From Seison nebaliae (Eukaryota): 59,041 bases of DNA. How positions within the stretch are numbered: the first letter of the stretch is position 1; every line of letters starts with the position of its first letter. The notes under the pieces are model-generated. The model made no database searches. It saw only the letters and a list, made by a program, of their open reading frames with translations, and was not told where the DNA came from. The stretch covers positions 1 through 59,041 of the forward strand of contig JALJEE010002731.1 in assembly GCA_023231475.1 (NCBI GenBank), in the 5' to 3' direction. The translations under genes were made by a program, and so were the position numbers. Positions 12,519 through 56,600 of this stretch are shown here, one piece after another.

Positions 12519-15500
12519 TTATCTTTTCTTGATATCTGACGCGAATGTATCTTCTCTCTCAACAATATTCAGGTGATCTGTTGTTGTTATTCGACTCTTA
12601 CCACTACTCATCCCTTGTCGTTCACTCGCCAATTGTAGTTGCGTTCTCAATGGCATCATAATTCGACTCGTTTTATTCTTCAATGAGGAGATTTCCGTTC
12701 TCAAATTAAATATTTCCTCATCTTGCAACTTCAGCGTCTTCAAGATCTTCTCCGTACTCTTATTGTTCATTTCAGTAGTGATACCGAATTCTTCTCCCTA
12801 AACAACAGCCATCACTCGATCGAAGAGAATGAAGAAAATTTAACAATTTTCAATTGTCTCTTATTTAAATCAGTTTCGATATTAAATTGCGTTTCAGCCA
12901 TATCAATCAATTCCGTATTTCGATTTGTGTTGTCCTTCAATTGTTCGATGAAATCACCTCGTTCTCTATCGATCTCTTTCTGCAAAAAAAAAATATACTT
13001 ACAATTTTAATTATTTACACAAATCTCATACCTGAATTCTTGAAACTTGTCGATAATTGTTCGCTTGAGCCGTCGCTAATTTTTCACGAAGACGTTCTTG
13101 TTGTGCGTTGACGGCCAACGAATCGATCTTCTCCATATTGACGATATTCCCAAATTTATTGATCATCATTTGACGGATTTTCTTTGCGAAATCTTTCACT
13201 ATTTGAGTTCGTCGTTCAATCTCGAAATCCATTTCGTGTCGCTTCTTCTTCAAATGTCTTTGATTTCCCTATCATGAAAAACGAGAGAATTGAGAGAAAT
13301 TGATTAACTTTAATTTCTGTTGTTCGTCTGTTTTCATTTTTCTCAATTCAGTTATTCTTCCCGATAGTTGTCGCATTCGTGATAAATCGAAAACGAGAGC
13401 TTCCGAAAGATCGTTAGGAAATATGTCATCTCGTAAAAATTCGATTTGATGGATTTTCAATGTAATGATCACTTCGATCTCATTTAACATTTGCTGTTTT
13501 TTCCTTTCGAAAATTTCAATATCTGTTTGAATCGTTGACAAATTATTTTTAATCTGATTATAATTCTTTTGAATCATTTCGTTCTCCTTCTTATAAATGT
13601 CATGTCTCTTCTTCTCCTCATTCAATTGATTCTCTAAATAGAAAGAATTGTAAAGAATGACAAAACGAAAAGAAGTCACCTTGAGACCATCGTTTACTTC
13701 TTAATTCCACTATCTCGTCATAGATCTCCTCCGAACAACTATTGGGACATTGTTCGATATCATAATATTCTTTCGGACCTGATTCATCATCGTCATCTAA
13801 CGATTCTGTGAAATCACTATCGCTATCGAAATCCGAAAGATCTGATGATTCACTAGACGCTTGAAAAAATTGATGGAATTAACTTGGAAAAGTGAATAAA
13901 CAAACTACCAACTATTTTCATCATCATCTTTGCTCTTTTTTCGCGTCAATTTCTTCTTGTAAACTTTCAAGAGATAATTCTCGAACTTCTCACCTTTAGC
14001 AGCGATTTCGACACTTTGCGTTTTTAACGTTTTCAAATTATTTTCTATCCGTTCCAAATTTTTCGTGATCGCAATAAATTTCTGTTCAGTCACTTCCAAC
14101 TGATAAACGAGAGAGATAATGGTGAAAAAAATGATGAGAAATATGAACCTGTTTCGATACTTTCGTTTGTTCTTTCTTCGATTGTTGCATTGATTGACGG
14201 AGTTCTCTTTCTTTCTGTTGGAAGTTTCTAAGAATGACCAACTCTTTGTATAAAGTTGTTTGACGGAGATCACAATTCTTCAAATATTTCAGCGTCGTAT
14301 TATATCGATGGCGCAACATAGATAATTTGATATCGAACACTCTCTGCACGAGATTGACATACTCCAACAATTTTTTCCTCTCTCCTTCTAATCTGAAATG
14401 GAACGTCAAATTTGTCATTTGAGATGAGAAAAAAGGAAAATTAACACAATCTTCTCCCGCTTAAGTGCACTGAGTCGAACATGAGACATTTGATCCGTCT
14501 CCATTGCTTGAATGCGAGACATCTCTGTCGAAATACTGGGAAAGCTTTTGGCCAATTTCTCTAAATTCTTCGTCTTCGGCAAATCGATCGATAACAACTC
14601 GATATTGTTCGTCAACAATTCATATTTGGGTAAGGAGATACCGAGTTTGTTGATAAGTTCGATGAATTTCCGTACGTAGATGAGGAATTCTTTTTCCACG
14701 TTCACCGCATTGACGTTTATCCGGAGACCTAAAAAGCTCTGAAAAGTAGTCTTTGGAACTTCCATTTTGGCTTCCGATTCGATTAGAGCCATGTTCAGTT
14801 TTTTCACATCGAATTCATTCGGATGCGCTTCCTCTTTTGGCGGTTCTTCATTTCCTGAATCGTCGTCAGTCGACAGGTTCTCCATCTGTTCTAGAACCAC
14901 TATCTCTTTGGTGGGACGATTTTTCAAATAATCCTGTATCGTATCCGTCGTACACAAAATACTCCAACGGTCGGCCAATTCGTCGAAATTGAATGTGGGT
15001 ATCATATCGAAATCCAAAACGAAATCTTTATCCAATCGTTGATTGATGAAATAGATCATGGCATAGTAGAAGGTGATCTGAGTGACTAATTCCAATTTTT
15101 CGTCTCGTAAATTGAAAAACATTTCATTGAAATCTTTCTTCGTCTTATAAATCTAATAATGAATAATAATTATAATATAATGGTTGTATAAGAGAAGAGA
15201 GAAAGAAAGAGAGATTCCTAACAATTTTCTTCAATTCGATTAATTTTCTGATGGCTTTCGTTTCCGTCATTCTGGTAGCATCGTCAACTTTAAAGTTTTC
15301 CGATGTTTTCAACGCGTAATCGCCGACATTATGAGAGAACCATTCGATTTCTCGATGCAACTCCTCATTGACCCAATCGTCATCAATTTTCCTCTTCAAC
15401 AAATCGTCCCACTACCACGAGAATGAGAATAAGAATAAGAAGAAGGAAAAAAAGAAGAAACTTCTTTTTTCCGTTCGATCCGTTGTCGTCGTCTTTCGTT

Positions 15501-53698: not shown

Positions 53699-56600
53699 AT
53701 GACGACATTTCTCGTTGCGACAACACCACCTAATACGGAATACTTCTCTAAATCCGTCAAACAATCCACGAACAATGATTCGAATAAAATGAATTTATGT
53801 TGCAATCAACTCTCACCTGAAACCAACATCAGTGAACCAGGAACATGTAATCAGTTGAACGGTAGTGCCACCAATATGGAGAAGTTGAACGGTCAGAAAT
53901 TCTCAGTTTTGCCTTCACCATCACCACGATCAAATGGCACCTCCTCCACATCCTCCACCATTTTCCCTTCTCCTAATTCGACTTATTCGAGAGAACGTCG
54001 ACTACCGCCAGGTGAACCATATAATTGGCCACAATACAAGAACGAAAAAGATTATGAATATATCGTTGGAATGGCGACGAAATTAGCGGAAGTGAAGCAG
54101 CAACAGCGACAACAAGAACAGGATCAGGATCTGTTGAATGATCAAAGGAATTTATTGACTATCATCGAACAGAATGGTTGTTGGAATAATGATAATGATT
54201 ATAAGATCGGAAAGAGTTAGTTGATTTAAATTATTTTATTTGATGATTATTATGATGAACAGATAGCAATATAAATGAGAACGAAGTGAAAAATCTGAAA
54301 TTGTATTCGAATGTCTCGGAATTGATGCAGCAATCGACGGAGGAAATGAACGAGTCGACATATGATGAAACGAATCCAATCAGTTTAGTTCACACCTCAT
54401 CTTCTTCTTCTTCTTCTTATTCTTTCTCCCTTCTTTCCAACTAATCAACTTCTACTTGATATGATAATGAATCGCGAGGGAATTATTAATTAACTCATTT
54501 CACTTTATTACTCTTTTATCCCTCGATTATTCGTCGATGATTAGTGTTGTTGTTATAATGAAATTAGGAATTCATGCATTCATTCCCATTCCTCCCAAAT
54601 ATTAACTTCTCATGTTTGATTCCGATATTTCTATGCCCCATACTCATTATTAGCAATTGCCCTTATATGAATAATTGATGAAATAACAGAGAAGGAGAAA
54701 TGGTAGTAATAGAACGTGATGATAGATAAATTCCATTAATTTTTTTCTTCCAGTTTATTATATTGCTCTTTCTCTCTTTTTTCTTCCTTCTAATCGAAAC
54801 CGACTGGTTGAACTCCACCTCGTCGCTCTCCCTCCCCACAAACCATTTCGATAACAAATAGAAAAGATCGACATTATCAAAAATGCAGAAAGTCTATCAA
54901 ATATTTTTCATTCACTTTATTCGCCATCTACTCGCCACACCATCCAAAATACATCCAATTCAACCAATAACAATAATGGAAGTGGTATCGATGAATCGGG
55001 CGGAAATGATTTTGAACTAAAAGTATCACTCGACTCTCTACTATCATATCCGGAGGAGACCGCACAGTCGTTGTTGGAAAATAAAATCAGCAACATATCT
55101 TCTGTCACCACCACCATCTCCATTGCCACCACCACTATCACTACATTGAGTAATATGCAATCGATGAGGAATAAGAAGAACATCTCCTCCTTCAATCTAT
55201 TCGACAATAACACGACGAACAGTAACTTAATTACTACCAATTCAAACTATTGTCCCACTTTATTTGGCGACTATTCGAATTCGGACGCAAAAACTCTTTT
55301 CTCACAATTGGGAAATCAATCCTCCTATTTCTCAACATTACTACAACACAATCAGACGAATGACACACAACCCGAAACGCAGTCGATAGCACCGCAGGAG
55401 CTGCAACCAAATAAGAGGAAATTCAACAACGACATTTCGGACGACTTATTTAATGGGAAGAAAGCGAAACACAACGACAATTCGGTCAATCTCAAAAGTT
55501 ATTATATTTTCCATTCTTTACCAGTTTCCAGTCTTCTCGTTGAGGAGGAGGAGAGACGAAATCTTATTAATCATGTTTAGGAGAATTAGTGTTGAGTTGA
55601 GGATAGCTGGAAGGCATTGACCATTATTTGCACTTAATCGAATGCCACTTAATGTCATTAAGTTAGGAAGAATGAGAAGGAAAACCTGAAAAAGATGGAG
55701 ATTCGTTGAGGGCTGAAATTCAACGATTAGACGTTGGAAATTGAGGAGGAGAATATTAGGAATCATCTACTCAAGATCACCTACTGTTAATGGTTGAGCA
55801 TTAGGAGATTTTTATGATTTCTCCTCCCTATGATTTGTAATTTGCATCTTATTTCTGCTCGAATTCATGTCACGATTAAGCAGATAATTTAGGAAGGAAA
55901 TCTGATAATCGAAACAGTGATCGATGAGTCTAAGTTGAGGTTATGACTAATCAAATTTCATTAGCCATCTGCTGGATTCCATTTATTTGTTTGTGGTAGA
56001 TGATTATTCCAATAAGTTTAAAGGAGAGTGTTGGATGGAATATTAATCAAAAATGAGCGAGATATTTCCTAATTATTCTCATTGGTCCGATTACATCTCA
56101 TTTTCTTTCCTTTTCAATCTTGCAGACACGAACGACGCAAATGACTTATGTCGGCAATTAGTGAAATCGGAAAAGAAGACTGAATTGCAAACGACAAATT
56201 TCCCATCAAATCGATGCTCTACACAAATCTTGAATACGAACGAACAACTTCGACAACAACAACAGCAACAACAGAATTCAAATGACGTTCGACATCGAAC
56301 AAACAATAATTCGTCAACTTCTTCTACATCATCGAATAATTCATTTAATTCTTCATCATCTGCTAATCAATCGATTAGTACATCAGCTTCCGGTGTTTCC
56401 AACAACAACAATACCAACAACAGTAATAATGGTAACAATTCCAATAGTTCTAATAGTAATACGTCTCCCAATAACAACAACAACAATAACAACAGCAACA
56501 ATAATAATAATAATAATAATAATAATAACAACAACAATAGTAATAGTCAAAATCCGAGCAACAGTGGAACTGGACAAATTCAGTTGTGGCAATTCCTCTT

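Follow-up and report, generated by a model that had tools for sequence, protein, structure and literature searches.

The introns of Seison nebaliae appear to start with an unusual signal: in one contig of this animal (JALJEE010002731.1, the whole 59,041-nt stretch that we analysed and call the window), 27 of the 30 GT-AG introns placed in nine genes begin with GTT. Few features of animal donors, which usually begin with GTA or GTG, are as constant as a purine at +3, and the splicing machinery of Seison is likely to read intron starts in a changed way. Seison is a marine, epizoic member of the Syndermata with a compact genome of ~46 Mb (PMC8351084). An initial annotation had proposed these introns and listed their donors. 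With every junction inferred from DNA and protein, we rebuilt the nine gene models from coordinates; all 30 introns were reproduced with open frames, and the recount gave an identical donor list, with GTT in 27/30 and no GTRAGT. Intron lengths range from 44 to 628 nt, 25/30 lying between 44 and 70 nt, and no further intron-bearing genes were found in the window by coding potential.

The dominance of T at +3 in the placed introns is real and confirms the initial observation (T27/A1/C1/G1). Base composition is looser at -1 (A17/G6/T5/C2), +4 (A13/T11/C5/G1) and +5 (A12/G8/C5/T5). These donors thus depart from the canonical metazoan GURAG signal, which has a +3 purine and +5G in most introns: purines occupy +3 in 2/30, below the 33% background (p=7e-4), and G occupies +5 in 8/30. 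The latter still exceeds the 6-11% G content of introns (p=0.0003-0.014), so +5G is reduced in Seison donors, not lost. The GT-AG termini expected of U2-type introns are present in 30/30 by construction; when all dinucleotides were allowed, each annotated junction of the NCBI models for CFAP44 and GLG1 had a GT-AG solution. None of the 30 donors carries the U12-type donor motif.

Could the GTT excess arise without any selection at +3, from relaxed constraint, T-rich introns and the placement choices of the annotator? T follows GT at 51% of the 72 GTs in intron interiors (37-38% of coding and intergenic GTs), T stands at +9 in 22/30 introns, and frame, composition or annotation underlies 16 placements, annotation being no proof because the NCBI GLG1 model has a doubtful extra intron. 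However, 27/30 is more than such a background would give (p=8e-6 against 0.51, 5e-4 against 0.61, which is the T share at +9 to +13, and 0.02 against 0.73), and T makes up only 41% of +4 to +8, so that +3 is a peak and does not simply open a run of Ts. Unused frame-compatible donors have GTT in 25/58 (used versus unused, p=2e-5), whereas GTT is found in 6/6 donors that were the single option; a donor-blind composition model chose GTT in 24/30 introns and the initially annotated donor in 21/30. Introns of bdelloid rotifers with an equal T content (45% in both) have GTT in only 16%. An absence of selection at +3 is, in our view, very improbable.

Much depends on how the junctions were fixed. We used a purpose-written spliced aligner that demands only GT and AG and leaves the donor otherwise unscored. 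For CFAP44, 7/10 junctions were recovered by 15-20 of 20 homologs each; introns 4 and 6 had rival donors in the homolog alignments, and intron 1 was recovered by 0/20. The three SLC35D junctions, aligned with 97 homologs, were recovered in 64/67, 76/82 and 83/88 covering alignments, and two homologs placed introns 1 and 2 of the SUMF-like gene. Together with shared intron positions, donor-blind homology fixes 14 junctions, of which 12 have GTT (p=0.009 against 0.51; 0.05 against the share of T just downstream). Including three introns for which only one donor fits the frame raises this to 15/17, and the remaining 13 have GTT in 12. Pieces from two sequence sets, X1 and X2 (the latter possibly the source of the window), continue without a break through the introns, as DNA would, whereas two further sets, X6 and X7, gave no matching pieces. 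Those from X1 and X2 match positions 12000-26700 with no differing letters except in one short low-depth contig; donor letters there are therefore not assembly errors.

The NCBI models were not counted as independent, because their making was not seen. Exon 1 of CFAP44 matches the NCBI protein SNEBB_009742 of Seison nebaliae at 99% identity, and the GLG1-like and SUMF-like genes match neighbouring locus tags. These models agree on 10/10 CFAP44 and 3/3 SLC35D junctions and on four in GLG1, and our SUMF-like protein is identical to theirs. We rejected them as proof, since the GLG1 model removes a further in-frame 84-nt stretch, G/GTC..CAG (here and below the slash marks the exon end), at 22095-22178 on the forward strand, inside an open frame. 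That stretch resembles part of a cysteine-rich repeat and its removal is probably a false annotation.

Given the changed donors, are the introns themselves new? Scanning a metagenome for CFAP44 gave 80 loci, of which L009 and 13 others were examined; L010, with the same match span as L009, was left out. L009 contains a full bdelloid-type CFAP44 gene, 73% identical to that of Adineta steineri, with 32 introns. Bdelloid-type status was assigned to L009, L049, L077 and L078 only, whose CFAP44 is 73-89% identical to that of bdelloids. In Seison CFAP44, nine of ten introns occupy a bdelloid position and phase (eight exactly, one an aligned codon off). The introns are thus old and their donors have changed, and the match in position and phase identifies introns 4 and 6 as having GTT donors. 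A contrary scenario sees the introns as copies of a transposon-like introner that inserted recently and provided GTT from its own end. Their lengths are indeed short and similar, and CFAP44 intron 1 has no bdelloid counterpart position, but the nine old positions argue otherwise, intron-intron similarity stays within the shuffled range (best 38, shuffles <=42), and 19/30 junctions have no duplicated base. We rejected the introner origin as largely refuted by the old positions and the absence of intron-intron similarity, and find it scarcely credible.

The L009 introns share positions, lengths near 50-60 nt and T content with those of Seison, yet their donors show an ordinary GTAAGT-type signal (+3A 25/32, +4A 20/32, +5G 17/32, the last compared with 8/30 in Seison). 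T at +3 is found in 27/30 Seison introns versus 5/32 in L009 (p=2e-9), or 7/49 in all bdelloid-type introns (p=1e-11), where the three added shorter loci partly repeat the same positions from further species. At the nine CFAP44 positions common to both, +3 is T in seven Seison and three bdelloid introns. The initial annotation had concluded that this lineage rewired donor recognition; a lineage-specific change in donor preference is supported by this comparison at largely orthologous positions, whereas the accompanying two-class scheme, considered below, is only suggestive. Acceptors ending in AAG are not specific to Seison, because L009 has 5/32 and Seison 5/30. Two further eukaryote CFAP44 genes, L073 and L079 (L074 repeats L073), have +3A in 18/25; with introns of 38-90 nt, donors mainly GTAAA or GTAAT and +5G in 1/25, they represent another weak-donor lineage.

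Other signals around the donor have moved as well. A is in excess at the exon end (69/120 at -4 to -1 versus 39.7 expected, z=5.7), with no excess in the bdelloid; at +4, A:T is 13:11 in Seison and 35:6 in bdelloid-type introns (p=0.009), a shift from A to T; and pyrimidines make up 77% of +9 to +13, compared with 45% in the bdelloid. Donors with neither -1G nor +5G amount to 17/30 in Seison versus 9/32 in the bdelloid. None of six branch-point patterns was clearly enriched (best TGAT, 7 versus 3.4 expected). A +4 change from A to U and stronger U5 pairing have been tied to loss of METTL16 (PMC10581693, PMC11732430), and both the +4 shift and the stronger exon-end signal of that phenotype are found in Seison. 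Of the 25 syndermatans in supplementary file 1, sheet BUSCO_Syndermatan, of PMC12256650, Seison is the only one for which METTL16 is scored 'Missing', although this may be a failure of detection.

The same sheet scores other splicing genes as missing in Seison: splicing factor 45 in this species only, U5-40K in one bdelloid as well, and ZMAT5 also in both acanthocephalans, while the BUSCO rows found in that supplement include none for LUC7 or U1-C (PMC12256650). This pattern hints at a trimmed spliceosome and at loss of the minor spliceosome. ZMAT5 is a minor-spliceosome protein.

How might such donors be recognised? Most in need of explanation is why +3 avoids purines, and the simplest cause would be a U1 change opposite +3, given that an unchanged U1 in its normal register would not exclude GTA after a base other than G, because bdelloids use that combination freely. 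We envision that the 5' arm of U1 has changed along with the donors so as to pair with +3U, and that recognition places more weight on U5 and an unmethylated U6, an account to which we give close to an even chance. If position 6 of U1 were A and not pseudouridine, +3U would pair and +3A would not; a -1G would add a G-C pair and might free +3, yielding the two donor classes of the initial annotation. At hand-off, U5 loop 1 could grip the A-rich exon end, and the ACAGA box of U6, probably unmethylated because METTL16 has probably been lost, might accept +3U by G-U wobble and tolerate +4U. The outcome would be a weak, degenerate signal of the A/GTTWRT type, usable because most introns are ~50 nt long and pyrimidine-rich from their 5' end. 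There is precedent in Entamoeba, where a U1 with ACAAAC matches GUUUGU and the U6 ACAGA can pair across +2 to +6 (bioRxiv 2022.06.08.495308).

In its broadest form, which we hold tentatively and would sooner doubt than accept, the reading is that the major spliceosome of an animal has been re-coded: a changed U1 reads GUU, METTL16 loss leaves U6 unmethylated, and the A/GUU code used by most introns of the genome fits neither metazoan donor class. Several points weigh against a co-evolved U1 with more weight on U5 and U6. The sample is 30 introns from a single contig, 16 of them placed without homology validation. The window gave no Rfam match, and no U1, U5 or U6 gene was seen. With +3 left out, the flanks paired by U1 fit its normal register modestly (z=2.55), less well than a register shifted by +1 (z=4.2), and -1G is not enriched (6/30). 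Most lineages with odd donors retain a standard U1 (bioRxiv 2022.06.08.495308), 227 yeast U1s are invariant, and METTL16 loss in yeasts alters +4 with little variation at +3. SNRNP27K is scored 'Complete' in Seison, and METTL16 may have escaped detection, because 356/954 BUSCOs are missing there (PMC12256650).

The fit to a shifted register points to a second possibility, namely that a standard U1 reads most donors one base along, with U10 opposite -1A, C9 opposite +1G, A7 opposite +3U and the pseudouridines opposite +4/+5, and -1G donors in the normal register. Such registers are proven at some human sites (PMC4856993). Using the standard U1 end from Table 2 of PMC4856993, we counted, per Seison donor, 4.9 Watson-Crick pairs for the normal register, 5.1 for the shifted one and 5.7 with A at U1 position 6, versus 6.2, 3.7 and 5.6 for bdelloid donors. 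The base expected from the shift is the plurality base at 7/9 variable positions, and -1A, +3U and purines at +4 and +5 occur in 17, 27, 14 and 20 of the 30 donors. Even without +3, 97 matches are found versus 69.2 expected (the z=4.2 above; z=0.4 in the bdelloid), and +7 to +9 alone give p=0.009. No snRNA would need to have changed for the shift to account for -1A, +3U and the two classes. However, the shifted helix lacks its stabilising G-C pairs (-2C in 4/30, +6G in 2/30), and the mean predicted duplex is -2.2 kcal/mol, compared with -4.3 in the bdelloid. U5 also explains -1A and the pyrimidine tract +9T; the shift is silent on why GTA after a base other than G is avoided, and it was picked after the data had been seen. 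We consider it unlikely as the main explanation.

Alternatively, pairing with an unchanged U1 may be nearly dispensable, with donors set by short-intron definition, the U-rich tract, U5 and G-U wobble of U6 at +3. U-rich tracts behind a donor can be bound by TIA-1/Nam8-type proteins. The clearest signals do lie at U5-type (z=5.7 alone) and U6-box positions (z=4.1 alone), the pyrimidine enrichment at +9 to +13 is in line with it, and many lineages shift their donors with U1 unchanged (bioRxiv 2022.06.08.495308). But +3 varies little in other METTL16-less lineages, and complementarity to U6 over the whole of GUUUGU shows no enrichment (38 matches at +4 to +6 versus 32 expected, p=0.09). This possibility strikes us as rather unlikely. 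A co-evolved U1 with weight on U5 and U6, a shifted standard U1 and a nearly dispensable U1 are not mutually exclusive.

A co-evolved U1 would also bear on the interplay of -1 and +3. The initial annotation had proposed two donor classes in which G at -1 relaxes the base at +3. On recount, G stands at -1 in each of the three non-GTT donors, and the 24 donors with another base at -1 are all GTT; that is, 3/6 versus 0/24 depart from GTT (Fisher p=0.005). The rule holds in 30/30 introns, and 26/58 unused frame-compatible donors violate it. At three introns fixed by homology (SLC35D intron 2, CFAP44 introns 5 and 7), the junction passes over a GTA decoy that follows a base other than G. Yet the rule rests on three introns, the table was selected post hoc (p=0.16 by permutation over 192 exon-by-intron tables), and the 14 validated introns give 2 versus 2 and 0 versus 10 (p=0.07). 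The -1/+3 rule is thus suggestive, a good hypothesis and not a result. That the exon and intron sides of a junction compensate for each other is well established (Parker et al. 2025, PMC11732430), and the new part is therefore the base at +3, not the seesaw.

How does Seison compare with known systems? In Entamoeba (Roy and Bowser, bioRxiv 10.1101/2022.06.08.495308), nearly all introns likewise have +3U, with GT-AG ends in short, AT-rich introns, but donors there are strict, 88-90% GUUUGU, and come with a co-evolved U1. Seison is an animal; beyond +3 its donors are degenerate (GTTTGT 2/30, +5G 8/30), and the exon end is A-rich. Shifted or bulged U1 registers in humans (Tan et al. 2016, PMC4856993) resemble Seison in that +3U and -1A fit a U1 moved by one base, although validated non-canonical registers cover ~1.5% of human sites and GTT covers 90% of Seison donors, without the +6G and -2C of the shift. 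With the scheme of U5-type AG//GUNNN and U6-type NN//GURAG donors and the METTL16-loss phenotype (PMC11732430, PMC10581693), Seison shares a suggestive compensation between exon and intron sides, +4 moving to U, a stronger exon end and an apparently missing METTL16, but the known switch is at +4 and that of Seison at +3. Most Seison donors fit neither class, because 17/30 lack both -1G and +5G.

In the literature searched, which did not extend to subscription papers and bioRxiv supplements, we found no prior report of GTT donors in Seison or another animal. The accessible parts of the Seison genome paper mention introns only as an aspect of gene compactness, and its supplements gave no match to splicing terms (PMC8351084); nor do the accessible parts of PMC10125929 contain anything on Seison splice sites. 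A main donor with +3U is already in print for Entamoeba, and the new element would be that an animal lineage has genuinely altered its 5' splice signal, as judged from the genomic sequence of one contig. An animal that swaps the +3 purine for U at old introns offers a natural experiment on the spliceosome components that determine the donor code. Should METTL16 truly be lost, Seison would allow the link between U6 methylation and splice-site evolution, for which the evidence has come from yeasts and mutants, to be tested in an animal. A corollary is that gene-finding programs trained on other animals would place Seison donors wrongly, which may inflate the gene loss reported for this lineage. 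Genome and mRNA data for Seison are public (PMC8351084).

The individual placements differ in strength. CFAP44 (12522-18924, reverse strand) has ten introns. The weakest placement is intron 1 (16401-16452, T/GTTAGA..TAG), which rests on NCBI model P0001. Introns 2 (15412-15461, A/GTTTCT..TAG) and 3 (15153-15222, T/GTTAGG..TAG) each have a sole frame-compatible donor and 20/20 homologs; a bdelloid intron lies at the same codon and phase as intron 2, and intron 3 is at a shared position. Intron 4 (14393-14445, T/GTTAAT..CAG) is exact in 4/20 homologs. The initial annotation held that an overlapping GTGTTA breaks the frame here; this is so with the same acceptor, but GTGTTA fits acceptors 13, 31 and 49 nt further on, and it is the bdelloid intron, agreeing in position and in phase 2, that favours GTTAAT. 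Intron 5 (14100-14148, G/GTTCAT..CAG) was found by 18/20 homologs, an A/GTATCG decoy 12 nt upstream being paired with this acceptor once. Intron 6 (13860-13912, A/GTTGGT..AAG) was chosen by 12/20 versus 7/20 for the rival G/GTAGTT, and has phase 1 as does the bdelloid intron one aligned codon away. Introns 7 (13634-13679, G/GTGACT..TAG, non-GTT; 19/20), 8 (13258-13308, A/GTTAAT..AAG; 18/20, sole frame-compatible donor), 9 (12980-13031, G/GTATGA..CAG, non-GTT; 15/20) and 10 (12798-12844, T/GTTAAA..TAG; 16/20) all share their positions with the bdelloid, as does intron 5. Compared with L009 (10001-17356), Seison CFAP44 keeps nine of the last 12 bdelloid intron positions and none of the first 20, and its first exon spans 2.5 kb; if these are intron losses in Seison, they are 5'-biased. 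Recombination with reverse transcripts is expected to give 3'-biased loss, the opposite pattern.

In the SLC35D-like gene (reverse strand), introns 1 (26068-26133, A/GTTTAC..TAG), 2 (25818-25875, A/GTTTCC..TAG) and 3 (25690-25745, G/GTTATT..TAG) have the homolog support given above; at intron 2 the bypassed T/GTAAAG lies 5 nt upstream and was picked once. The GLG1-like introns (forward strand) follow NCBI model P0121: introns 1 (22230-22349, A/GTTTCT..TAG) and 3 (22868-22915, A/GTTTTT..CAG), for which in-frame read-through is also open, and introns 2 (22511-22577, G/GTCATT..TAG, non-GTT) and 4 (23132-23175, G/GTTCAT..CAG), with composition margins of 7.2 and 5.1 bits. The SUMF-like gene (forward strand), identical to NCBI P0122, has introns 1 (46965-47011, A/GTTTCT..TAG) and 2 (47244-47375, A/GTTAAT..CAG), each with 2/2 homologs and in the NCBI model, and intron 3 (47563-47615, A/GTTCAC..AAG), where the NCBI model is the support and both homologs stop short.

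The SMAD-like gene (37892-39884, forward strand) is strongly diverged (MH1 25.8 bits, MH2 70.6 bits). Its intron 1 (38478-38528, A/GTTATC..CAG) has the sole frame-compatible donor within 60 nt, intron 2 (38851-39056, A/GTTAAA..CAG) rests on frame and a composition margin of 7.0 bits, and intron 3 (39702-39760, C/GTTTGT..TAG) rests on frame and preserves an MH2 stretch aligning to Smad2 up to the junction, although the composition model favours another donor. A gene of 521 aa, which we leave unnamed, has one intron at 40554-40597 on the reverse strand (T/GTTCAT..AAG), placed by frame and composition only. MESD (forward strand) has intron 1 at 45587-45638 (C/GTTTGT..AAG), with a sole frame-compatible donor and a next exon carrying Pfam Mesd, and intron 2 at 45933-45986 (A/GTTCAT..TAG), placed by frame only among five possible donors. 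The MRPS14 intron (48699-48742, forward strand, A/GTTTGA..TAG) uses the sole frame-compatible GT and gives a product of 128 aa, as long as mammalian uS14m chains. The ETS gene introns (forward strand) were placed by frame only: 54216-54262 (A/GTTAGT..CAG; nearest rival donors likewise GTT), 54383-54861 (A/GTTTAG..TAG) and 55498-56125 (A/GTTATT..CAG; six possible donors).

A possible 47-nt intron in a 5' leader (246-292, reverse strand, G/GTTTTA..TAG) was left out of all counts; it lies upstream of an open reading frame cut by the contig end, which we take to be phosphate-transporter-like. Between 29459 and 36724, the reverse strand has a stop-free frame of 2,422 codons with no introns and no Pfam match. 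The POU-homeodomain gene (3606-6368, reverse strand), one long frame, and the ETS gene (53699-57849, forward strand) both carry long N-/Q-rich tracts, and several kilobases of non-coding DNA flank each of them, although the contig is dense elsewhere.

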